Shown here: in pieces, positions 48,538 to 63,918 of the stretch
Layout: every line of letters starts with the position of its first letter
How positions within the stretch are numbered: the first letter of the stretch is position 1
From: Patescibacteria group bacterium
Lineage (GTDB): Bacteria; Patescibacteriota; Minisyncoccia; UBA6257; 02-FULL-45-10c
Direction: 5' to 3'
DNA: 64,000 nucleotides
Assembly: GCA_018969615.1 (NCBI GenBank)
Contig: JAGWYA010000001.1
Location: forward strand, 169,141-233,140
Program-made: the position numbers and the translations under genes
Notes under the pieces: model-generated
The model's input: the letters and a program-made list of their open reading frames with translations, nothing else
Databases searched by the model: none
What the model was told of the DNA's origin: nothing

Positions 48538-48604
48538 GGCGTGAAGAATACTGTGTGTATTTATCTATTTTAATACCCTCGCTTTGATAATACAATGGGC
48601 GCTC

Positions 48605-48823
48605 GGATAGTGCGTAGTGAGTGGCGCGTAGTTCGTAGTAAAGAAGGCGCGGAATCAAAGGCCTCATAATAACGCTGGAGCTTTTTCCTTGTTTTGGAAA
48701 TTATTATTTCTAAGCCGACCTGAGTCGGCTCCCAGACAAGGGTTGAGGCCGTCTACATGCTACTTTCTACGCGCTATCCCCACTGCCTACGGTCTACTGC
48801 CTACGTGCTATTTTATGCTACAC
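48605..48823. repeat. Palindromic intergenic element, site 1 (empty). A plus-orientation word array (48605-48643: GGATAGTGCGTAG TGAGTGGCGCGTAG TTCGTAGTAAAG), a central hairpin (48713-48730) and a minus-orientation array (48753-48823: ...CCACTGCCTAC GGTCTACTGCCTAC GTGCTA...).
   Basis: Arms are imperfect reverse complements (GGATAGTGCGTAG vs GGGATAGCGCGTAG). Strongly C-depleted on one strand. Confidence 0.7.
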
Positions 48824-49382: not shown

Positions 49383-49465
49383 TAGCACGTAGGGAGTAGG
49401 CAGTGGGCAGTAGTTAAATGTTAAAGGTCAAAGGTAAAAATCTCCGGCTGCTGCCGGAGATTTTT
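49383..49465. repeat. Half-element plus terminator, site 2. Plus-orientation words TAGCACGTAGGGAGTAGGCAGTGGGCAGTAG (49383-49413), then hairpin TCTCCGGC-TGCT-GCCGGAGA plus T5 (49436-49465).
   Basis: Read directly. Terminator for pth and for the PilMN gene. Confidence 0.65.
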
Positions 49466-50981: not shown

Positions 50982-53900
50982 TTAATTCATTACCTGAAGA
51001 ACAGCAGTTCCCGAAACCGCAACCGGAGGGACGATCGTAAGCGAGGTCATCGCAGCGATTTTGGCATAACAAGACGTGTGCTCATTGAAGACAGACGTTT
51101 CACTTCCGTAGGTACTTGCGGCATTGTAGGTGAACATTTGGCGAGCCGAATTTGCCGCTGATGACGTAAACGGATCTATGATCAAATTTATATCATCAAC
51201 GCTTGCCGTCATCGTTCCCGTACTTAGCTGGAACGGACAGCCGGTCCCAGCAGTAGATCCGATGCCGCCGGATGCCGCCGCTGAATTGCTGTAATTCCCG
51301 GCATAAAGATATGCGGCAGTTGAAGAATTATTAACACGGAAATACCATGTTCCTGCAGTATTTGTCGTCGGAGTTAAATTTGCGGATAACCGATAAACCG
51401 TACCCGTGGTTAATCCCGAGAATGTAATAGTGGTTGCTCCGCTCACTGTTTGATTCGAAACAGTCGTCCAAGCACCCGAACCGACAACCGGAGTTGCGGC
51501 GTAGTATGCATCAATAATAATCACGCCGGAACCACCGGCACCTCCTTGACATGCGCCAGTTCCGCCTGAGCCGCCTCCGCCAACGGCGTAAGAATAAGAC
51601 GACGCAAGGCTCGTGATCATGAATTTTGCATATTCACCCGCGCCACCACCGGCGGAATAAGCAGGTGATCCGGCATTCCAATAACAGCCACCGCCGCCGG
51701 CGCCTGAATTTGCCGCACCGGCTACGCCGTTACCCTCAGATCCATTATATGTTGCACGGCCGCCGCCGCCGAAGAATGAGTTTCCGCCTCCGGTAGAATA
51801 ACCATCGGGAGTCGAGCCGCCACCACCGGCGATACGCAATAAAGCGGTTCCCGTTCCGCCAGTTCCGCCAGCACCACCGCCACCAGTAGTCACCGCCGCA
51901 CCGCCGCCGGGATTTGCCGTAACCCCATCAAATGAAGTTGCGCCTCCGGTTGATCCAGGGCCAGCACTTGTATGAGCACCCGAACCACCACCACCACCAC
52001 CGACCATCTGTATCACTAAATAGGCAGCGTTTGCAGGGGTTGTATATGTCCCGGTTCCCGAGGTAAGCACTGTTTCAGTTGGCGGAAGTGCGGATCCTCC
52101 CCCGCCCGCCGTCGTCTGGATCGTACCGTCGGGGAACTTAATACCGCCGGTTTCGGAGTAGATCGTCCCCTTCACGTCCAGCGCCGAATTCGGCGTCGTC
52201 GTCCCGATGCCGACGTTACCTGAAGAAGTGATAACCATATGTGTATTCGCTCCGCCGGTCATAAACTCGAGATTGCCCGCAGCATCTCCAACATTATAGT
52301 TGTCAGCAACCGCTGATTGGAGCGTGCCAAGATTGTTCGTCCATTTTATTAAACCGTTCGCGGTCGCCGTATTGCTCGTATTAAGGGTAAGTGTTGGTGC
52401 CGAAGAATTTAGCGCGGAAAGCTGCAAAAGACTTCCCGGCGTCGTGGTTCCAATGCCGACATAACCGCTGTTATTGATCGTCAAACGAGTCGCGCCATTC
52501 GTATTATCGTAGATCCGGAAATTATGAGTCGCATCAATCAAGCCGTTTCCGATCGTCCAGCCGCTGACGCCGTCATCGGTTCCGAAACCAAGGCCAACTG
52601 ACGAAACCGAAGTACCGATCAACTGAGCACTGCCGTTAACCGATAATAGATGTTGAGGATTTGTTGTCCCAATACCAACATTCCCGCCGTTTGGATTGAT
52701 CGCAAGCGGATGCGTCAGATCAGCGCGATTCGAATAATGCGCTTGGATCCATCCGTATGCTCCTCCTGTGTAAGCAGCTCCGATGTTAACCTCAGGGTCT
52801 CCAACGCTCAAAGACCCAAACTGCGCACCTACGGTAACCGGGGATGCTGCCGTTTGCGGGGCGCTGTCCCCCGTATTAACGGTCAAGATACTCCCGGGCG
52901 CCGCCGTCCCGATGCCGACATTACCGGTTCCTGCAGTACTATTCAAAAGAAGGTTACCGCCTCCAGTCCACGCATCAATGCCGAGATCGTTTCCGGTCCG
53001 GAATACTCTTCCCATCGTTGTCGCACCGGAGGTCAATAACGCCCAATCAGGCGATGCCGCCGTCGAATTGATCCGGAACGGCGTAGTACCGGTAGTCGCA
53101 TCAACGGTAAGCATATGATCGGGTCCTGTTGTCCCGATACCGACATTCCCGCCGTTTGGATTAAGAGCTAAAGGATATGTTGCCCCACCACCTACTTGGA
53201 GGTACCCTGTCCATGGAGGTGCGTTTAACAATCCCATGTTTATTTTCCCCGTTGTATTAGCATGTATTTGAAATTCAGTGCTTCCAGCCGTGCTCGGATT
53301 TGCTTCCGCCGTAGTATCAACCTCGAGCGCCGCTCCCGGATTCGTCGTTCCAATGCCCACATTTCCCGTATTGTAATACGCACTGGTCCCGTTCTGGGTC
53401 CACAATCCGCCCTGACTCGCCGATGTCTGAGTCGTTCCATCGGCGTACCGGATGCCGCCGGTCGTATACACCGTCCCGACTACGCTCAAGGCCTGCGAAG
53501 GCGAGGTGGTTCCGATACCGACATCTCCATTGCCTGATTTCACGACTAAGACTGGTGTTCCTCCGCCATTAGCAGTATTGAAGTAGATATCGCCATAGTT
53601 TGTCAGCACCTGCATCAAGTCTCCGCTTATCGTATTCTTAATATCCGTACGATGACCGGATGGAGATTGATTGATCGCAAACGTTTGGGTTCCTGCATTA
53701 CCAATAGAAAATCCATTGTCATAACCAGGCGTTCCCATAAGAGAAAGATAGGCACCTACCGATTGGTTGACCACGGCTAAGGTCCCCTGCGGCGTTGTTG
53801 TTCCAATGCCCACATTGCCGCTTGAATCTATATGCAGAGCGCTCACCGGATTATTGGCCGTCTTCGAAATGTCGAAATCAAGCGTGCTCAGATAACCACC

Positions 53901-56807
53901 GAGCGTTGTTGAAACGATTGAAGAGATCGGCCCTAAGTGATCCGCAAAACTCAATGTCTGCGTATCGCCCGCAATTGCATTGTCATTTCTGATCCAGGGA
54001 TCTGGGTCGCTCGTTGGTTTATAAATTTCAAGCGTGGCATTTGGGCTCGCTGTGCCGATACCCACTTTTCCGCCAACCTGCGTCAATGCCGTTTCTTGAG
54101 CGTATGTTGTCGGTGCCGTCACGGCCGAAGTTGCGGTTGAAGCCGTAAAGGCGTCGGCATTAATGCCCTCCTGCTTGATAACGATATAAGCCGTTCCCAC
54201 GTTTGCCCCATCAGTCGCCGTTACCCGCAAGCGAAGCGACAAAACAGTTCCTGACATCATTTCATCAAGTGCAAAATCATTCCCGGAATATGCCCCCGAA
54301 CTTGAAATAGGCAAAACTGTTTCCCATGTAGCATTTTGCTGGCCATATTGGATCGGAAGAATATACTGCTTCGCGGCCGAATAACCGTTTGATGGTACCG
54401 TCACCGAGATCCGCAAAGATCCTCCACCGTCCGTAAAGGCAAAACTGCCGATATCAACCTCATTATTGACCGTCAACGGCAAGGTGCGGGTCAACGGTAT
54501 AATATTTGCATTCGTAAACTTGACGTCACCGCTTCCGTCAATCGTCAGCCTCGTCACGCCATTCGTATTATCATAAATGCGGAAATTATGCGTTGCATCA
54601 ATAAGGCCGTTCCCGATCGTCCAACCGCTGACGCCATCATCGGTTCCAAAGCCAAGCCCAACCGAGCCGGTCGCGGTGCCGACTAGCTCGGCGCTACCAT
54701 TTACAGAAAGAAGGTGGTTCGGCGTAATATTTCCGATGCCGACATTGCCGCTCATAAAAACAGTATTAGCAAATGTATTATCCCTGCCAAAGTAAAGATT
54801 CCCGCCATTCGCCTGCGGATCAATATTAACGCCACTCCCCCAAGCTAATAATCTCAAAGATCCTGTCAAACTTGATGGATAGGTTACTAAAAGGGACGTG
54901 CTCGAGGTAGACGAAGAAACTTCTAGAGTTCCTCCCGGATTCGTTGTCCCGATACCGACAGCTCCGGCATCCGTAACCGTAAGCCGAGTCTGATCAGTCC
55001 CCTGAACAACGAAATTGCCGACTGAATCTTGGCCTATATCGATAAAACCAGACCCTGCTCCCTGGAAACGAACTTGCGGGCCTGCGCCGTTAGCACCAGT
55101 CCATTGCCCAACAAGCACCGTCCCTAGATAATCGGCATTATTAGCACTCACCGAGAGCCTTCCGGTTGTGCCAACAACATCGAGATTATAGGCTGGATTC
55201 GTCGTTCCAATACCGACATTGCCGGTGTTGTAATAAATATTCGAGCCATTTGAAACCCATAACCCTCCCGCCGAAGTCTGAAGCGAACCGTCAGGATACT
55301 GGATCCCGCCGGTCGCATAGACCTTTCCGGCGACGCTCAACGCCTGTGATGGCGAAGTGGTTCCGATACCGACGTTGCCGTTATTCACTATTCTCATCCT
55401 CTCCGGCGCTGCAGTACCCGCTACTTGAGATGCATCTGTATAAAAACGGATCGATCCATCGCTTGGATAGCCGATCCCAGCAAGGTTACCGGTTGAATCA
55501 TGAGAAGGCGTCGCTTGGGCAATTCCATTCCAGTTAAAATTATATCCGCCGCCATGACCGCCGCCGTTATCTAAAGTCGCAACACGCGCGTAGGAAAGAT
55601 TGCCCAGACGGAATTCACTCGCCGAGCTGATCCCATTCACATCCAAGAGCGATCCCGGGTTTGTCGTCCCGATACCAACATTCCCGTTCGTCAATACGAC
55701 CAGTTTTTGCGCCCCACCTTCGCTTAAGGCAACCGGCTGGCTTCCGCCGTTGATCGTAAAAAATCCACCCGGAGCGGCTCCGCCATCTTGGATCGTTGAC
55801 GCATTCGGGAACGAAATCCCTTCCACCGGGATCGCGTTACCGCCGATCGCGATACCCTGAAGCGTCCCGGCGCGAATACCGCCATTTACATCAAGTGCGT
55901 CTGTCGGATTCTGTGTGTTGATACCGACGTATCCCAAACTATTGACGTTAATCCCAAGCACGGCGCCACCGTCGCGACCAAGATACATATCGCCATCACC
56001 TCCGATATATCCCACCGCGCCCTCGAATGCACCGCTGGGGCCGAACATCTGAATACTCTTATTATAATCAGGTGCTACCGAAGGATCGGTGTACATTTTT
56101 ACCGCATATCCCGCACCCACATTGATACTAAGCGGATTCGTGCCAACTCCAGCCGACCCGATCCCAACACCGCCATTCGAATCAATTGATAACCGAGTTA
56201 CGCCGCTCGTATTGTCATAAATACGGAATGTGTGTGTCGAGTCGGTCAAACCATTTCCGATCGTCCAGCCGCTGACGCCGTCATCCGTTCCGAATCCGAG
56301 ACCAACCGATGAAAGCGAGGTGCCAATGAGCTGAGCATTGCCGTTCACGGAAAGAAGGTGCTGCGGGGCAGCCGTCCCGATACCGACATTGCCGTTCGCA
56401 GCGAGGATCGACATTTTCGTACCCTGATTCACACGGAATGCAAGATCATGGGCAGTGTTCAATTCCATGCCTGCATCCCAGGCGGCGCTGTTATCATGGA
56501 AATAATATCCGAGCACGGCGCCGGCGCCCGCAAGACCAATGCCGCAATTCGATGAATTCGGACACTCAACCAGAAGCGGGTTATTGGTTGGAAAAGAGGC
56601 TGAAGTTAAAAGAGAATTCCCGCCATGAACATACAGGGTCGTTCCTGTGGTGGGCGCCGCGCCTCCGATATCCAATGATGCCGGCAAGTTTCCCGATGGC
56701 GGTGATGTGCTCGGTTCAGTCCAAGCCGCAAAAACCACGTATGACGAAAGAAGCAACAACGTCGTTACCAGGAAAATAGTTGCCGTGTTCTTCACTAAAC
56801 GCAACAT
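50982..56807 (-). CDS. Giant secreted fiber/adhesin-like protein (about 1940 aa) with tail-fiber-type GNVGIGTxxP repeats and a Gly-rich C-terminal region.
   Basis: Start at Met54 of the track ORF (MLRLVKNTATIFLVTTLLLLSSYVVFAAWTEP signal peptide). More than 15 copies of ...NGNVGIGTT(N/S)P... and ...LSVNG.A.L.G... repeats. C-terminal poly-Gly tracts. Confidence 0.8.
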   Translation of the reverse strand: MLRLVKNTATIFLVTTLLLLSSYVVFAAWTEPSTSPPSGNLPASLDIGGAAPTTGTTLYVHGGNSLLTSASFPTNNPLLVECPNSSNCGIGLAGAGAVLGYYFHDNSAAWDAGMELNTAHDLAFRVNQGTKMSILAANGNVGIGTAAPQHLLSVNGNAQLIGTSLSSVGLGFGTDDGVSGWTIGNGLTDSTHTFRIYDNTSGVTRLSIDSNGGVGIGSAGVGTNPLSINVGAGYAVKMYTDPSVAPDYNKSIQMFGPSGAFEGAVGYIGGDGDMYLGRDGGAVLGINVNSLGYVGINTQNPTDALDVNGGIRAGTLQGIAIGGNAIPVEGISFPNASTIQDGGAAPGGFFTINGGSQPVALSEGGAQKLVVLTNGNVGIGTTNPGSLLDVNGISSASEFRLGNLSYARVATLDNGGGHGGGYNFNWNGIAQATPSHDSTGNLAGIGYPSDGSIRFYTDASQVAGTAAPERMRIVNNGNVGIGTTSPSQALSVAGKVYATGGIQYPDGSLQTSAGGLWVSNGSNIYYNTGNVGIGTTNPAYNLDVVGTTGRLSVSANNADYLGTVLVGQWTGANGAGPQVRFQGAGSGFIDIGQDSVGNFVVQGTDQTRLTVTDAGAVGIGTTNPGGTLEVSSSTSSTSLLVTYPSSLTGSLRLLAWGSGVNIDPQANGGNLYFGRDNTFANTVFMSGNVGIGNITPNHLLSVNGSAELVGTATGSVGLGFGTDDGVSGWTIGNGLIDATHNFRIYDNTNGVTRLTIDGSGDVKFTNANIIPLTRTLPLTVNNEVDIGSFAFTDGGGSLRISVTVPSNGYSAAKQYILPIQYGQQNATWETVLPISSSGAYSGNDFALDEMMSGTVLSLRLRVTATDGANVGTAYIVIKQEGINADAFTASTATSAVTAPTTYAQETALTQVGGKVGIGTASPNATLEIYKPTSDPDPWIRNDNAIAGDTQTLSFADHLGPISSIVSTTLGGYLSTLDFDISKTANNPVSALHIDSSGNVGIGTTTPQGTLAVVNQSVGAYLSLMGTPGYDNGFSIGNAGTQTFAINQSPSGHRTDIKNTISGDLMQVLTNYGDIYFNTANGGGTPVLVVKSGNGDVGIGTTSPSQALSVVGTVYTTGGIRYADGTTQTSASQGGLWTQNGTSAYYNTGNVGIGTTNPGAALEVDTTAEANPSTAGSTEFQIHANTTGKINMGLLNAPPWTGYLQVGGGATYPLALNPNGGNVGIGTTGPDHMLTVDATTGTTPFRINSTAASPDWALLTSGATTMGRVFRTGNDLGIDAWTGGGNLLLNSTAGTGNVGIGTAAPGSILTVNTGDSAPQTAASPVTVGAQFGSLSVGDPEVNIGAAYTGGAYGWIQAHYSNRADLTHPLAINPNGGNVGIGTTNPQHLLSVNGSAQLIGTSVSSVGLGFGTDDGVSGWTIGNGLIDATHNFRIYDNTNGATRLTINNSGYVGIGTTTPGSLLQLSALNSSAPTLTLNTSNTATANGLIKWTNNLGTLQSAVADNYNVGDAAGNLEFMTGGANTHMVITSSGNVGIGTTTPNSALDVKGTIYSETGGIKFPDGTIQTTAGGGGSALPPTETVLTSGTGTYTTPANAAYLVIQMVGGGGGGSGAHTSAGPGSTGGATSFDGVTANPGGGAAVTTGGGGAGGTGGTGTALLRIAGGGGSTPDGYSTGGGNSFFGGGGRATYNGSEGNGVAGAANSGAGGGGCYWNAGSPAYSAGGGAGEYAKFMITSLASSYSYAVGGGGSGGTGACQGGAGGSGVIIIDAYYAATPVVGSGAWTTVSNQTVSGATTITFSGLTTGTVYRLSANLTPTTNTAGTWYFRVNNSSTAAYLYAGNYSNSAAASGGIGSTAGTGCPFQLSTGTMTASVDDINLIIDPFTSSAANSARQMFTYNAASTYGSETSVFNEHTSCYAKIAAMTSLTIVPPVAVSGTAVLQVMN

Positions 56808-56828
56808 GTTCTTATTGTACCATTTTTT

Positions 56829-56948
56829 AGGGCAGTAGTCCGTAGCCCGTGGGCAGTGGGGATAGTAAGCAGGAAGTAGTGCACGGACAGTAGAAATATA
56901 GTGCGTAATAGTACACACCCCCAGTGCATCCAGTCGAGGATTGGATGC
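56829..56948. repeat. Element arm plus duplicated gene fragment, site 3 left. Plus-orientation words (56829-56904), a roughly 55-bp decayed duplicate of the 3' end of gene 57515..58801 including the 16-mer CCCCCAGTGCATCCAG (56908-56923), and a hairpin GCATCCA-N19-TGGATGC.
   Basis: Alignment of 56880-56940 to 57516-57575 is about 80% identical. 16/16 core identity. Confidence 0.65.
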
Positions 56949-56966
56949 GCCTAACCGAAGCTCCAT

Positions 56967-57155
56967 TTATTTTTTATATGCGATCCCCAGATCTTTGCAA
57001 ATTTTCTTTGCCAAAATTTCATCGATCTCGCTATGCCGGGGAACCGTAGAGGTTCGATTGAGCGACGGATTTAAAAAGACGCTGTGTCTTGCGCCTTCTC
57101 TGGCAAGGACGCATCCGTTCTTGAACAGACGCCTTATCAGATCGTTCCGCTTCAT
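56967..57155 (-). CDS. hicA: HicA mRNA-interferase toxin.
   Basis: 62 aa. LIRRLFKNGCVLAREGARHSVF... is the YcfA/HicA pattern. Confidence 0.85.
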   Translation of the reverse strand: MKRNDLIRRLFKNGCVLAREGARHSVFLNPSLNRTSTVPRHSEIDEILAKKICKDLGIAYKK

Positions 57156-57162
57156 TATTTTG

Positions 57163-57384
57163 TTATTTCTGAGAAACCGTCAGAGGCTCTCTGATTATTT
57201 TCCCGGAAACTTCTTTCCGGGCAAACTCCCTGTTCGTCTCCAAGATCAGCAGCAAGGCTTCCTTAAGATTTTCCTTTGTTTCTTTTAAGGTTTTACCCTG
57301 AGTATTCACGCCCGGAATCTCCTCGATCCAGCCCAGATACCATTTTTTGCCCTTCCTGTAATTGGCGGTAAAGCGCTTTGTCAT
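57163..57384 (-). CDS. hicB: HicB antitoxin (UPF0150 RNase-H-like fold).
   Basis: 73 aa. KKWYLGWIEEIPGVNTQGKTLKETKENLKEAL. Adjacent to hicA. Confidence 0.8.
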   Translation of the reverse strand: MTKRFTANYRKGKKWYLGWIEEIPGVNTQGKTLKETKENLKEALLLILETNREFARKEVSGKIIREPLTVSQK

Positions 57385-57468
57385 ACTTTCAAAATAACAC
57401 GCTTCAAAAGGAAAAACAATTTAATTTCGCCCCGGATCCCGCATCAAGTGCGGAATGACAATGTGGCT

Positions 57469-57540
57469 GCCACCCCTACTCCCCACTACCTACTGCCTAC
57501 TCCCTACTTACTATTTAGTTCGTATGCACGTAATAATACA
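57469..57540. repeat. Element arm, site 3 right. Minus-orientation words CCACCCCTACTCCCCACTACCTACTGCCTACTCCCTACTTACTATT, running into the 3' end of gene 57515..58801.
   Basis: Reverse complement matches the plus-orientation array at 56829-56904. Confidence 0.6.
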
Positions 57541-58801
57541 CATCCCCCCAGTGCATCCAGCCGAGATCGGCATCATCCCAAGACCAACCGCTGAAGCGCC
57601 CTCCGGAATCGATCGAGACGCCATAGCTGCTGTTATCAAGCGCGGTGCCCGCCAAATGGATCCAGCTCCCCGATCCCATCACCTTCGCCCAACCGGTCAG
57701 CGTTTTCGGGAACGTGCCGGTCAATCCGCCGGGGATCGTCGCATTACAGGTTCCGCTCGGGCAACCCACCAGATCGGATGCCGTAAAACTGATCCAACCG
57801 AGAACATCCGACCAGGCATAGCCGTCCATCACGCCGGTCGTCGCGTTCACCGTCACACCGTAATTCGATGTCCCGCAACTCCCCTGATTGGAACAACTGA
57901 AGCTGATCCAGCCGAGATTCGAGTACGCCCATCCGGAGATCGCGTTCGTACCGCTCTGCGTCAGAATGCCATACGCCACTTCACTCAGTGATTCCACCTT
58001 CACTTCACCGGTCGCCTGGTTCACATCGAGGATCGCCTTCAGTTGGTGCGTGCGGTTCTGCATGCTCCCCAGCGAAATGATCTGGTCCTTGTTCAACCCG
58101 ACGCAATTCGGCGCCGGCTGGTCCGCGCACACGGTCACGTTTGCGATACTGCCGTCGGGGAATGACAGTGCATATTGGCCCGAAAATGTTTTATCGCGCG
58201 CGATCCGCAGCATTGCATCCTGGATCCCTGATTGCGCCGCCGCGAGCGCCTGCGCGTTCAACCGCGCATTCAGCTCCGTTTTACTGGTCAATGCATTGCC
58301 CACCAATAACGCGACCGCGATCTCAATAACCAGCCCGCCGATCATGATGACAAGCGGCAAAGCGGCGATGCCCCGCTTTGCCCGTAGTCCGTGGGCAGTA
58401 GGCAGTGGAGGAAAAGATACTTTCAGGCTCCGAAGTTTTCTCAAAAGCACATTCAGCATTTTCATAACCATCTCAAGAAGTTGCTCAACTTTTTTATATT
58501 CACTTTCATTCATAAGCATGTTCCGCTTTGCTATCTCAAGTTGAGTCTCCAGTTCAGCGCCGGAACCAAAAGCGATAGATAAGAATTGAATATACGATCC
58601 GTCAGAATTCCTTCGGTATCCTTCAGCAATATTCGAAGGAATAGAAACCGCCGCACGACGCATCTGAGACACAAGACCGAATCGCTCACTATCAGGAAAC
58701 TTATTTGTCAGCAAATAGATCTCATCAACAAGATCGATGCTCTTCTGCCATACGGTTAAGTTTTTATATGTTTTCAGTTCCATAATCTGTCTATATATCA
58801 T
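57515..58801 (-). CDS. In-frame fusion. N-terminal four-helix-bundle protein of the 23S-rRNA-intervening-sequence family (about 127 aa) joined to an atypical prepilin-like TM segment and a roughly 280-aa secreted domain ending in a GW-rich module shared with 62635..63918.
   Basis: GGGAGGT RBS plus ATG at 58799-58801. Residues 1-127 MIYRQIMELKTYKNLTVWQKSIDLVDEIYLLTNKFP...IAFGSGAELETQLEIA are typical 4HB (PF05635-like). No stop before KRGIAALPLVIMIGGLVIEIAVALLV. C-terminus GWISFSCSN...CG..NYG...GWISF...GWMHW. Confidence 0.6.
   Translation of the reverse strand: MIYRQIMELKTYKNLTVWQKSIDLVDEIYLLTNKFPDSERFGLVSQMRRAAVSIPSNIAEGYRRNSDGSYIQFLSIAFGSGAELETQLEIAKRNMLMNESEYKKVEQLLEMVMKMLNVLLRKLRSLKVSFPPLPTAHGLRAKRGIAALPLVIMIGGLVIEIAVALLVGNALTSKTELNARLNAQALAAAQSGIQDAMLRIARDKTFSGQYALSFPDGSIANVTVCADQPAPNCVGLNKDQIISLGSMQNRTHQLKAILDVNQATGEVKVESLSEVAYGILTQSGTNAISGWAYSNLGWISFSCSNQGSCGTSNYGVTVNATTGVMDGYAWSDVLGWISFTASDLVGCPSGTCNATIPGGLTGTFPKTLTGWAKVMGSGSWIHLAGTALDNSSYGVSIDSGGRFSGWSWDDADLGWMHWGDVYYYVHTN
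58382..58407. repeat. Left inverted arm of the 4HB cassette (CGTAGTCCGTGGGCAGTAGGCAGTGG). It lies inside the coding frame, encoding LPTAHGLR.
   Basis: Reverse complement of 58843-58874 (GTAGTCCGT identical, then GGCAGTGG words). Confidence 0.65.
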
Positions 58802-58807
58802 ACCTCC

Positions 58808-58874
58808 CTACTGCGCACGATCTACTTTTCTACTTTCTATTTCCACTGCCCACTGCCTACTCTCTACGGACTAC
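58808..58874. repeat. Right inverted arm of the 4HB cassette (...CCACTGCCCACTGCCTACTCTCTACGGACTAC), overlapping the stop of 58871..59809.
   Basis: See the left arm. Together the arms bound a roughly 390-bp segment of visibly lower GC (about 40% vs about 58%). Confidence 0.65.
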
Positions 58875-59809
58875 TTGCTAAGCCCTATCGAAACACTATC
58901 CACTTGCGGCGTGGCGTTTGCGGTATCAAAAATGATCTTGTACCGGAAATAGCGCGCATTGATATAAGGAGATGCCGGGATCGGAACCTGCACATTCGGT
59001 CCCGCGGGCTCCAGAAGCGATCCGTAACTCCATGGACCGCCGGAACTGTTCGAGGTCGCGATCTCAAATCCCACTTTTGATCCGCTCGGCTGGGTCCCCT
59101 GCCAGATAAAATAATTATACCCTGCTCCGTTCGTTTCCTGCGTATCATACGTGCTGGAAACCACTTCACACTGCTCGGAAGCGGCGTTACAGGTCGTGAG
59201 CGACGGCAAGATCGATCCCGGCGTACCGGTATAATTGACATTCGCTGATGAAAAAAACTGACCGTTCGTACGCGTGATCGGTCCCGCTTGTCCCGACCCG
59301 TTAGACCAATCGGTCTGCGTCACGGCGAACGACTGCCACCGCGTCACATAAAAAGAAGTGGAAACGGTCTGTGCGGCGCCCAAGACCGGGAACGAGGTCG
59401 TCACGGTTACCTTCCGGGTATAGGGATCATCCCCGCTTGAACTATAAGTGGCATCGATCAACCCCGCGGTCCGGGAAACCGGGTCCACATAAAACGAGCG
59501 CGTGAACGAAATATTATTCACCGTGACGGTCTCAGGGCCGACAGCGGATGCCAGAACCCCGCCGGTATTCGTCAGATGATAGGTGTTCGCCGAGCCCGTG
59601 GTCAGCGCATACAGATCGGGCCAATTCCCGCCTGAAAATGAACGCACCTCATCGCCCAGTGAATTATTGACGATCGTTGCGCTCTGACTCTTCGTATTGA
59701 ATTCATTGGTGCGGACGCTCACCACATACGCGCCGCCGATCCCCGTCAAAACCAGCGCGCCGATACCGAGCGCCACCAATACTTCCACTATTGACTGTCC
59801 GCTTCTCAT
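58871..59809 (-). CDS. Type IV pilin/pseudopilin-like protein (class III signal peptide).
   Basis: MRSGQSIVEVLVALGIGALVL: G then QSIVE with Glu at +5, and a hydrophobic helix. Ser/Thr/Asn-rich secreted domain. Confidence 0.7.
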   Translation of the reverse strand: MRSGQSIVEVLVALGIGALVLTGIGGAYVVSVRTNEFNTKSQSATIVNNSLGDEVRSFSGGNWPDLYALTTGSANTYHLTNTGGVLASAVGPETVTVNNISFTRSFYVDPVSRTAGLIDATYSSSGDDPYTRKVTVTTSFPVLGAAQTVSTSFYVTRWQSFAVTQTDWSNGSGQAGPITRTNGQFFSSANVNYTGTPGSILPSLTTCNAASEQCEVVSSTYDTQETNGAGYNYFIWQGTQPSGSKVGFEIATSNSSGGPWSYGSLLEPAGPNVQVPIPASPYINARYFRYKIIFDTANATPQVDSVSIGLSK

Positions 59810-59824
59810 GAACTTATTCTAACA

Positions 59825-60005
59825 TAGGCAGTAGTGAGTAGGCAGTTGGCAGTAGGGATAGTGAGTAGGAAGCAGAACGTGGGCAGTAGAAATAGTAAGT
59901 AACGAGTAGGCAGTGGCGCGTAGAAAGGATGAGATACAAAAATTCCGACGAAGAGTCGGAATTTTTTACTACTGCCTACGTGCTACTTTCTACCTACTAT
60001 TTCGT
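59825..60005. repeat. Palindromic intergenic element, site 4 (empty). A plus-orientation word array (59825-59927: ATAGGCAGTAG TGAGTAGGCAGT TGGCAGTAGG ... GTGGGCAGTAG ... AGTAGGCAGTGG), a central terminator hairpin TTCCGACG-AAG-AGTCGGAA plus T6 (59943-59967), and minus-orientation words (59968-60005).
   Basis: Read directly. One strand is almost devoid of C outside GCAG. Confidence 0.75.
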
Positions 60006-62469: not shown

Positions 62470-62480
62470 ATGTTTAGTAT

Positions 62481-62638
62481 AACATAGGAATAGTACGTAG
62501 GAAGTAGCACGTGGGCAGTAGAAATGGTTAGTAGTAAGTGGCTCGTAGGCAGTGGGGATAGTCCGTAGTAAGTTGGCAGTGGTACGTAGAAAAAATTCTC
62601 TACTGCCTACTCACTACGAGCCACTCGCTACTATCTAG
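62481..62638. repeat. Palindromic intergenic element, site 5 (empty). Plus-orientation words (62481-62590: ...GTAGGAAGTAGCACGTGGGCAGTAG...GTAAGTGGCTCGTAGGCAGTGG...GTTGGCAGTGG) then minus-orientation words (62600-62638: CTACTGCCTACTCACTACGAGCCACTCGCTAC).
   Basis: Arms share a 12-nt exact inverted core CTACGAGCCACT / AGTGGCTCGTAG. Confidence 0.75.
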
Positions 62639-63918
62639 TTCACTCTCGCCCCATAGCTCACGCTTCCGCAGGCGCTGGTATTACTACAATTAAAGCTCAA
62701 CCATCCAAGCGTCGTCGAGTCCCAGCCCCAGCCTGACAGCGTTCCATTTGCAGCCAACGACACGCCGTATGTACTTGCATTCTGCGCCGTCCCACTTAAA
62801 TGGAGCCAACTTCCCGTCGAGATGATCTTCCCCCATCCGGTCATTGCCGTCGGGAACGGACCCGCAAGACCGTTCGTGATCTTCGCCACACAATTCCCGC
62901 TCGGACAGCCGGTGAGATCGTTCTGATTGAAATCGATCCAGCCGATCGTCGGCGACCACGCATACCCATTCAGGATCCCCGTGCTCGCATCAGCGTTCAC
63001 GCCATAGTTCACCGTTCCGCACGTTGTCGTATTACTGCAATTAAAACTGATCCAGCCGCTGTTCGACGACCAGGCAAAACCGGACATCGGCACATACGTC
63101 GTATTCACGGTCAGAATAAAATTCGCGGTTGTGGTCGCGGTCCCATCCCCGATCTGCACGGGCAATGTCACGCTTCCCGACGGCGTTGAAATACTTGTCG
63201 TTAAATTCAAGGTAGCGCTGCAATTCGGCGTACACGTCGCCGGATTAAACACCGCCACGACACCGCTCGGCAAATTACTGACGGAAAAGGCACCCGCATG
63301 CGGGATCCCCGCAGTAACGGTCACGGTCGCGGTTGTTTGCGTCGATCCGCCCGCCTGTATCGTCGCGGTCGTCGGCGACAGGCTCATCGTCAATTGTTCA
63401 CCCGATGCGCTCTTTGAGGTTGTGATCAATCCGCTTCCGCTTAAAACCGAAATATATCGGACGATTGACGTGTCGGCCGTCAACGCCAGCGTGATCCCAT
63501 GATCTATCGCCGGGATCCCGGTCACTTTCGGAAAGTCGATCTCTTCCGTATTTCCCTGCGCCGGAGTCAAAAATTCGACCGACTTTGGCAAATAAACCGT
63601 ATCAGTCACCGTTCCGGTCGCATACGAATCTCCGTAAAAAACCTTATAATAATGGCCCCCTACTGCCGGCGCGGCATCCAAATAAACCCCCCAGGCGGAA
63701 TTCTCATACTGCGATTGCGCATTCTGCTGCGCAGCGACCAAATTATCCTGAAGCTGTTTCGCAGCGGCATCCAGCTCAGTGGTCGAACGGAACACCGTCG
63801 GCAAACTCATAACCGCGGCGGTACCCAAGATCGCCGTGAGCGCCGTAACGATAACGATCTCCAACAGCGTGAAGCCGGCAACGTGCTTAGTCCGCAAGGA
63901 TGATCTTTTAGGCGTCAT
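62635..63918 (-). CDS. Type IV pilin-like protein with a large C-terminal domain ending in the GW-rich module shared with 57515..58801.
   Basis: MTPKRSSLRTKHVAGFTLLEIVIVTALTAILGTAAV is a canonical prepilin leader (G then FTLLE, Glu at +5). C-terminal module GWISFNCSN..CG.VNYG...GWIDF...GWLSFNCSN. Confidence 0.8.
   Translation of the reverse strand: MTPKRSSLRTKHVAGFTLLEIVIVTALTAILGTAAVMSLPTVFRSTTELDAAAKQLQDNLVAAQQNAQSQYENSAWGVYLDAAPAVGGHYYKVFYGDSYATGTVTDTVYLPKSVEFLTPAQGNTEEIDFPKVTGIPAIDHGITLALTADTSIVRYISVLSGSGLITTSKSASGEQLTMSLSPTTATIQAGGSTQTTATVTVTAGIPHAGAFSVSNLPSGVVAVFNPATCTPNCSATLNLTTSISTPSGSVTLPVQIGDGTATTTANFILTVNTTYVPMSGFAWSSNSGWISFNCSNTTTCGTVNYGVNADASTGILNGYAWSPTIGWIDFNQNDLTGCPSGNCVAKITNGLAGPFPTAMTGWGKIISTGSWLHLSGTAQNASTYGVSLAANGTLSGWGWDSTTLGWLSFNCSNTSACGSVSYGARVN

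Follow-up and report, generated by a model that had tools for sequence, protein, structure and literature searches.

In Coxiella, the intervening sequence (IVS) of the 23S rRNA gene carries an open reading frame (ORF) for the four-helix-bundle (4HB) protein S23p between terminal inverted repeats, which pair into a 28-bp stem that RNase III cleaves, and 2-3 tandem heptamers (GACAGAT) of strain-variable number are located just upstream of this ORF (PMC4990558). Related ORFs (23S_rRNA_IVP) were found in 16S and 23S insertions of Candidate Phyla Radiation (CPR) bacteria (PMC11270868) and between cas genes, e.g., cmr3/cmr2, with GxxRxxxSxxxNxxE as the consensus of the 4HB family (PMC3936711). Directly repeated heptamers that stop every frame, such as TAACTGA in Beggiatoaceae and the cyanobacterial short tandemly repeated repetitive sequences (STRR), have been reported, and not in connection with 4HB genes (PMC4679880). 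The literature searched contained no account of inverted heptamer arrays as a general feature of 4HB genes outside rRNA. Here we analyze such a gene from a contig of a Patescibacteria group bacterium (JAGWYA010000001.1 of assembly GCA_018969615.1, positions 169,141 to 233,140; the whole stretch of 64,000 nt is called the window below), which is enclosed by inverted heptamer arrays inside a type IV pilus gene cluster and runs in frame into a pilin-like gene. The family-wide architecture of such loci, by which the IVS concept is carried beyond rRNA into protein-coding operons, is the more interesting result, the single fusion being a curiosity. PF05635/TIGR02436 ranks among the most abundant uncharacterized families in Patescibacteria, Bacteroidota, Planctomycetota and cyanobacteria, and its links to rRNA IVS, cas operons and diversity-generating retroelements (DGRs) have so far been anecdotal.

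The fused reading frame and its inverted arms

The ORF 57515..58801 on the minus strand encodes a single product of 428 aa with the 4HB domain at the N-terminus and a pilin-like protein at the C-terminus, without a stop codon in between. Its parts and immediate surroundings, in the order of transcription, are:

58871..59809, minus strand: pilin-like gene (type IV) on the upstream side, 312 aa; the first TAG of the 5' arm (58873-58871) serves as its stop
58802..58876, minus strand: 5' arm, heptamers GTAGNNN with the core GTAGGCA/GTGGGCA, ending in a Shine-Dalgarno (SD)-like GGGAGG (58808-58803)
58421..58801, minus strand: 4HB coding part, codons 1-127; Pfam domain at 58451-58765, family-typical start ATG 58783
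58376..58410, minus strand: 3' arm, CCACTGC CTACTGC CCACGGA CTACGGG, translated in frame as PLPTAHGLR
57515..58372, minus strand: main part of the pilin-like protein; the leader ends with G144 (58372-58370), conservation starts from I145 (IAALPLV...), stop at 57517-57515
58360-58358 (TTG, L148) and 58345-58343 (ATG, M153), minus strand: the only canonical in-frame starts 3' of the 4HB part, both within the conserved hydrophobic segment

The sequence-only reading, in which the first ~127 codons were assigned to a 4HB protein, was borne out by a full-model match to PF05635 (23S_rRNA_IVP; residues 13-117, model positions 1-105 of 106, E 1.1e-38, 132.1 bits against a cut-off of 33.8). The same part matched TIGR02436 (129.4 bits, cut-off 24), NF008911 (139.5 bits, cut-off 137) and, with an E of 3.7e-27, PDB 2GSC (Xcc0516), a solved pentameric four-helix-bundle protein; a fold of this type is supported through the similarity to 2GSC. 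The R-x3-S-x3-N-x2-E motif is present as R49-AAV-S53-IPS-N57-IA-E60. This is not a small stand-alone protein, as the 4HB part has no stop of its own and is followed by 301 further codons. The same fusion is carried in NCBI as a 420-aa "four helix bundle protein" with a CTG start (P0001, on a "Patescibacteria group bacterium" contig of 240 kb), and an exact database look-up with the 428-aa product returned no record. The GC content is 0.39-0.445 over 58400-58899 against 0.56-0.61 on either side, in agreement with the proposed AT-richer stretch. The ribosome-binding site also proposed for this gene held up only in part: the GGGAGG is there, but its distance of 1 nt from the first ATG and of 19 nt from ATG 58783, the start matching the N-termini of the family, would make it a poorly spaced site for either. 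In a scan of 56.7-64 kb for promoter and terminator consensus sequences, the hits were no more numerous than in shuffled sequence.

The inverted arms around the 4HB gene, located at 58375-58409 and 58842-58883, were 82% complementary across 28-34 nt, with a local alignment score of 38 against maxima of 26 in 500 shuffles and of 27 in 400 random equally spaced window pairs. They had been described as copies of one bipartite motif, which proved incorrect: each consists of degenerate heptamers in tandem, with (GTAGGCA)n on the upstream side and the complement of this unit on the downstream side, and the same family is found in the window also at a HicBA gene pair and in hairpins without cargo. 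On the coding strand, the 5' arm reads GTAGTCC GTAGAGA GTAGGCA GTGGGCA GTGGAAA and so on. In RNA folding, the minimum free energy (MFE) structure and the centroid structure were both closed by a stem of 9+16 bp between the arms (z = -3.1).

The two arms differ profoundly in their stop codon content. The 5' arm contains 2-3 stops per sense frame in all three frames, while its antisense strand is stop-free; the 3' arm has no sense-strand stops in any frame. The same asymmetry was present across the arrays of the window: upstream-type arms stop all three sense frames and have 0 antisense stops, while downstream-type arms have 0-1 sense stops and many antisense stops. This is explained by a heptamer period that is not a multiple of three, combined with TAG in the unit. 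With a stop-rich 5' arm and an open 3' arm, ORFs can be read out of the cassette but not into it, and the 4HB frame runs on into the pilin-like gene because the 3' arm is stop-free. The absence of a stop at the junction and the in-frame translation of this arm, both noticed already from the letters alone, were confirmed. Repeat and domain searches of the cassette found neither a direct duplication flanking the arms nor a transposase inside.

The part downstream of the arm consists of an N-terminal hydrophobic segment followed by a C-terminal GW-repeat domain. Its label as pilin-like, given by the sequence-only reading, agrees with the gene context and the hydrophobic segment, on which the label rests, but no Pfam or NCBIfam pilin model, including PF07963, was hit. 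The cluster itself is of the type IV pilus kind, with N_methyl pilins and PilM in the window and T2SSE/T2SSF upstream in the syntenic locus L001. The N_methyl motif in 62635..63918 exceeds the Pfam cut-off, while in 58871..59809 it is weak and stays below (E 0.0048, 16.9 bits against 21.2). The N_methyl pilin at 62635-63918 (427 aa) bears a paralogous C-terminal GW-repeat domain (GWISFNCSN...YGV...GYAWS), and the GW-repeat module is thus common to pilus proteins of the cluster and to many Parcubacteria proteins. An AlphaFold2 model of the pilin-like part made from six sequences had a mean pLDDT of 34.8, which is too low for use.

Orthologous junctions in relatives

Seven junctions were compared, namely that of the window and those of six orthologs (L001, L002, L003, L089, L090 and L092). 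The pilin-like part has five full-length orthologs of 298-304 aa with 53-60% identity, none of which (0/5) contains a 4HB domain. The sixth ortholog, L092, came from metagenomes, where the ortholog scan produced two loci only: the informative L092 and L091, which is a paralogous GW-domain protein. In the alignment of the pilin-like orthologs, 289 downstream codons are intact in the window and 134 columns are invariant. Conservation begins exactly at I145, while the short leader before it varies in sequence; the invariant IAALPLV is directly preceded by [RKN][GA] in 6/6 sequences, and position +5 is occupied by Pro, not by the classical Glu.

The sequence-only reading had suggested a comparison with relatives lacking the insertion, and such junctions exist in four of the six orthologs: in L001, L002, L003 and L092 the cassette is missing and the ortholog begins 1-23 nt past the TAA of the upstream pilin. 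L089, and L090 at the end of its contig, have a 4HB gene at this junction in the form of an ORF of its own, in the order stop TAA, 5 nt, ATG. This second 4HB protein is just 31% identical to that of the window, and its arms differ in sequence (AAAGTCN / GACTTTAT), the 3' arm coding for the leader MKFRLYRLYGHYGLSTTKA of the pilin-like protein. In L089 and L001, the ortholog of the upstream pilin (52-55% identity) can be aligned through to its very last residue (LSR/LSK), which places the insertion of the window exactly behind the final sense codon, the stop TAG being supplied by the arm.

The occurrence at this junction is therefore sporadic, as in IVS elements: four empty, two with an unrelated cassette, and the window occupied. 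The pattern is one of presence/absence and turnover, not of a stable domain fusion. Between the two possibilities left by the sequence-only reading, the comparison favored a cassette insertion, with arms of a family-wide kind, over a genuine N-terminal fusion as a conserved architecture. The probable explanation is that an IVS-type 4HB cassette entered the junction of two neighboring pilus genes in this particular lineage, and the fusion of the ORFs looks like a by-product of this insertion through the stop-free 3' arm rather than a designed fusion.

A selected functional fusion, with the 4HB part as the N-terminal, cytoplasmic domain of a pilus-associated protein anchored in the membrane, has to be weighed at this point. 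The 428 codons are uninterrupted, both halves look intact and the topology is feasible (N-terminus inside, one transmembrane segment, C-terminus outside). Moreover, a second long 4HB read-through was found in locus L067 (3998-5311; Elusimicrobia metagenome-assembled genome, JACQYT010000056.1), where the 4HB frame continues without a stop into a beta-rich exported protein, whose signal peptide (LTLPSTLSPLP) is coded in part by CTCTACC heptamers. However, the fusion was seen in 0/6 orthologs, two of which have the separate 4HB ORF at the same junction, and 120/120 of the best 4HB homologues (56-68% identity, mostly from Patescibacteria) are stand-alone proteins of 112-149 aa. Furthermore, the linker is merely the translated repeat arm, and the GC content of the 4HB part differs from that of the rest. 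Such a fusion is considered very unlikely.

Another explanation is an artefact or decay: an assembly or consensus error might have removed a stop or a start, or the pilin-like gene is a young pseudogene that lost its start. The source is a metagenome-assembled contig, and the L089 junction reads TAAGTATTATG, while its equivalent in the window reads AAAGTATCTTTT, so that one base could make or remove the stop. In addition, not a single in-frame ATG, GTG or TTG is present between K127 and G144, i.e., between the 4HB part and the conserved N-terminus. On the other hand, even with the stop restored the pilin-like gene would lack a start, and hence one error brings no rescue, while the downstream codons are intact, with the identities and invariant columns given above. 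This possibility is rated as rather unlikely.

Under the favored insertion, expression of the pilin-like gene from the internal start MIGGLVIEIAV (ATG 58345-58343) would be possible, as had been suggested from the sequence; no SD-like sequence was seen 5' of either TTG 58360 or ATG 58345. A perfect 10-bp hairpin at 58349-58389 (GGCAAAGCGG / CCGCTTTGCC, 7-nt loop) joins the RAKRG codons with the AALP codons at the leader/mature junction, and may hide the TTG 58360 start. The tryptic peptide of the fusion which spans the 4HB/pilin-like junction is VSFPPLPTAHGLR.

Even in the cassette-free loci L001 (7417-7456, 8314-8349) and L092 (2956-3000), the variable leader is still coded by heptamer-like repeats. 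In L001 the leader unit is (CATGATT)n, so that each of the three frames contains an ATG; the stop of the gene is followed by the reverse complement of this unit. Slippage by one unit would shift the frame in repeats of this type, which might possibly act as a phase-variation or start-rescue device.

Heptamer arrays at 4HB genes and elsewhere in the window

The flanks of 4HB genes were surveyed at 80 loci (for some measures at 71 or 67) obtained from a scan of species-representative genomes, covering Patescibacteria, Bacteroidota, Planctomycetota, Acidobacteriota, Clostridia, Elusimicrobiota and others. Complementarity was tested between 160 nt on either side of each 4HB ORF, using flanks of different loci as the control. 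Flanks of the same locus reached a median pairing score of 28.5 (control mean, 16.4), and the 99th percentile of the control was exceeded at 24 of the 80 loci. The arms match each other inside a locus and differ across genomes, as exemplified by (TAGCGTA)n/(ACGCTAC)n and (GTCGTAG)n/(CCTACGA)n, while GTAGGCA-type arms, as in the window, were found at a 4HB locus of a Kerfeldbacteria genome. A dominant period of 7 was detected in 60% of the upstream and 53% of the downstream flanks against 16% of random segments, and a further 23-25% of the 4HB flanks had a dominant period of 8.

The arrays are also strongly polarized. TAG occurred 2.97 times per 70 nt upstream of 4HB genes against 0.59 in the controls (fivefold), and CTA 2.39 times per 70 nt downstream (fourfold enrichment), indicating that the polarity of the arrays is fixed relative to the 4HB coding strand. 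Both neighbors were co-oriented with the 4HB gene in 54/71 loci. The stop codon of the upstream neighbor was located at a median of 48 nt ahead of the 4HB start and was TAG in 38/67 loci, in comparison to 24% of other ORFs.

The view, stated in the sequence-only reading, that 4HB genes normally occur only inside rRNA IVS did not survive this survey: more than 7,900 4HB homologues were found, and no rRNA was present within 4 kb of the 4HB gene in any of the 18 Patescibacteria loci checked. A search of the whole window against Rfam at gathering thresholds gave one tRNA only and no rRNA. The closest relatives of the 4HB gene of the window are located between protein genes, namely between T4SS_pilin genes (L084, L085) and between nusG and rplK (L087). 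In L084 and L085, the 4HB ORF crosses the 3' arm (...KRNGLHPTR* and ...KRYGLQPRTYNLKPNP*) and ends at or overlapping the next ATG. In a separate locus, L022 (1883-2950), downstream-type heptamers are translated in frame within a gene similar to NAD-dependent epimerases (LSANRYPL repeats), and a second 4HB gene follows directly.

The GTAGGCA heptamer family of the window is confined to its pilus-gene part (48.6-64 kb), where the following further copies were located:

57465..57517, minus strand: next 5'-type arm, beginning at the stop codon of the fusion ORF, with stops in all three sense frames
57163..57384 (hicB) and 56967..57155 (hicA), minus strand: toxin-antitoxin-type gene pair HicBA (PF21748, PF07927), GC 0.44-0.47, below the flanking genes
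56825..56900, minus strand: 3'-type arm closing the HicBA interval, followed by TGGTACAAT and then by ATG 56807
59822..60003, minus strand: hairpin without cargo, consisting of a 5' arm, a terminator-like hairpin (AAAAAATTCCGAC...GTCGGAATTTTT) and a long 3' arm; fold z = -5.4, with the stop asymmetry of the arms
62483..62637, minus strand: second hairpin without cargo; fold z = -4.4, with the stop asymmetry of the arms
48600-48810: heptamer arms around a structured non-coding insert of ~95 nt (about 48640-48745) with the closed stem GGCCTCA...TGAGGCC
49389-49414: lone heptamer array

These copies are relevant to another rival explanation, according to which the arms represent generic intergenic hairpin or terminator repeats of this genome and the 4HB gene, like HicBA, has merely landed in one of them. 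The heptamer family is indeed shared by the cargo-less hairpins and the HicBA interval, arrays flank ordinary genes in other genomes and thus persist also where there is no 4HB gene, and the cassette-free orthologs keep the heptamer-like leader repeats mentioned above. In contrast, the arrays follow the 4HB gene with fixed polarity in 75-80 loci of diverse phyla, the complementarity exists within loci and not between them, close HicBA homologues elsewhere lack such arms, and the same layout is shown by the rRNA IVS of Coxiella (PMC4990558). It is rather unlikely that the arms are generic in this sense, and the insertion of a 4HB cassette remains the favored reading.

In the HicBA interval (56825-57517), the arms pair in the MFE fold only. 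The close HicBA homologues, found in five other genomic contexts, had no inverted heptamer arms, and the arm-bracketed HicBA therefore appears to be a local situation; the idea that such arms are general cassette borders for other cargo was rejected as a rule on the same ground. L103 and L104 have a ~70-nt direct repeat (ACAACATTTTCTGTGTTTGTAA...CTAAAAACGA...) on both sides of HicBA (about 1390-1470 and 2040-2120), downstream of ruvB, which is a different kind of cassette border. The hairpins without cargo could be either relics of lost cassettes or derivatives similar to miniature inverted-repeat transposable elements (MITEs). For the insert in the 48.5-48.9 kb region, an E-value search of Rfam found no credible match; it could be a small RNA.

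An extended -10-like motif was noticed at 59816-59824, 62476-62484 and 56814-56822 (TGTTAGAAT, TGTTATACT and TGGTACAAT, respectively), ending exactly 6 nt before ATG 59809, 62469 and 56807, in all three cases after a downstream-type arm. With such a distance, the mRNAs of these three genes look leaderless. The pilin-like gene after the 4HB part is without this motif. The 1994-aa ORF 50982..56966 owes its upstream extension (56808-56966) to a stop-free arm (...PHCPRATDYCPKKWYNKN), and its true start is likely the ATG 56807 (MLRLVKNTATIFLV...).

Proposed cassette and its likeness to known systems

The cassette is a discrete low-GC unit made up of a stop-containing 5' heptamer array, an SD-like sequence, the 4HB ORF and the reverse-complement 3' array, and it is placed at a gene junction within a co-directional pilus cluster. 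According to the favored insertion, its 3' end directly abuts the sequence that encodes the conserved N-terminus of the pilin-like protein. The cassette presumably relies on host transcription. In the operon transcript the arms would pair as a stem of ~25 bp, which, by analogy with the 23S IVS of Coxiella and Leptospira, might be a substrate of RNase III. The 5' array would end upstream translation in any frame and, being purine-rich (TAGGGAGG), may aid re-initiation at the 4HB gene. In the 4HB subfamily of the window, the ORF normally enters or crosses the 3' array, and here neither a stop nor a new start follows. Three outcomes are conceivable for the pilin-like protein. The fusion may be made and cut by a prepilin-type peptidase at KRG|IAALP, freeing the 4HB protein and a normal mature protein; such a removal is topologically plausible, as prepilin leaders are cytoplasmic, and with Glu+5 absent and no pilin model matching, the cleavage idea is moderately supported only. 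Alternatively, translation might begin inside the hydrophobic segment, at TTG 58360 or ATG 58345, or the pilin-like gene may no longer be expressed, i.e., it is dying.

Several points speak against such an insertion. The analysis revealed no machinery for mobility, no target-site duplication and no exact border of the element, and mobility is suggested by presence/absence and by two unrelated cassettes at one junction only. An RNase III cut in the stem would part the 4HB from the pilin-like codons and leave a non-stop 4HB mRNA, which is awkward with ORFs crossing the 3' arm. The presence of same-family arrays without a 4HB gene in the window, together with those beside ordinary genes of other genomes, could mean that the pattern is partly host intergenic architecture rather than a cassette. 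The putative cleavage site with Pro in place of Glu+5, in a protein matched by no pilin model, does not help the peptidase outcome, and the junction is known from an assembled contig.

According to the family-wide data, 4HB genes resemble a selfish cassette that depends on transcription more than a partner of their neighbors: they are enclosed by complementary heptamer arrays of fixed polarity, begin ~48 nt after the stop of a co-directional neighbor, and undergo turnover at the same junction in related genomes. This advises caution against labels given by association, such as "cas-associated" or "pilus-associated" 4HB, accounts for the odd fused or N-terminally extended ORF calls beside 4HB genes, and offers a model for IVS biology outside rRNA, including stem formation, RNase III cleavage and re-initiation. 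A much broader proposal, which is tentative and on the doubtful side, would be that PF05635 4HB genes with inverted arrays are widespread and essentially undescribed operon-invading cassettes, of which the rRNA IVS is a special case. Their 5' array would stop incoming frames and offer SD-like repeats, while the open 3' array would be exapted downstream as a leader or signal-peptide sequence (L089, L090, L067 and the window). The 4HB part of the window would then be an oversized prepilin leader freed by the peptidase, and the 4HB protein itself might bind the arrays.

Among the described systems, the Avd accessory protein of DGRs (bAvd, PDB 4DWL) is a distantly homologous four-helix bundle. DGRs are common in CPR bacteria, and an Avd of a DGR aimed at the pilin-like protein might be imagined from the relationship of PF05635 to bAvd and from weak matches of the 4HB part to PF22296 (29.7 bits) and DivGenRetAVD (28.7 bits). 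These scores are, however, far under the cut-offs (bAvd 40 and DivGenRetAVD 80 bits), no reverse transcriptase was present among the ten large ORFs scanned in 42-64 kb, and the surroundings of the gene showed no long direct repeat of the template/variable type, making this role extremely improbable.

With MITE-like elements and REP-BIME (repetitive extragenic palindromes and their mosaic elements), the arrays, especially the cargo-less copies of the window, share short inverted-repeat hairpins scattered between genes, while they have no transposase or RAYT partner and no target-site duplication, and their arms are internally periodic with 7 nt. A transposon or MITE was dropped as a candidate for the cassette for lack of a transposase and of a target duplication, and an integron attC because the repeats are separated by the gene and there is no integrase. 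The TAACTGA/STRR repeats (PMC4679880) are similar in being mostly intergenic tandem heptamers before start codons, which stop all frames in the forward orientation and are translatable in reverse; they are direct repeats without a partner array or a 4HB gene, in contrast to the inverted pairs around a cassette in the window. With the stand-alone TIGR02436/PF05635 genes (Xcc0516, PDB 2GSC; the BT copies, 2RLD), the window copy has in common the full-length domain, the RxxxSxxxNxxE motif and the heptamer-array flanks found in most of the 75-80 loci, but, in contrast to these separate proteins, it is without its own stop.

The closest likeness is to the 23S rRNA IVS of Coxiella burnetii, Leptospira and Brucella (PMC4990558), which have a similar size (~0.4-0.5 kb), a PF05635 ORF between stem-forming inverted repeats, tandem heptamers at the 5' end just before the ORF, and co-transcription with the host gene. 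In contrast to them, the window cassette is located in a protein-coding pilus operon and not in helix 25 or 45 of 23S rRNA, its processing by RNase III is suggested by analogy, and only one of its arms is rich in stops, the other being free of them, which affects coding; its ORF is fused to the next gene.

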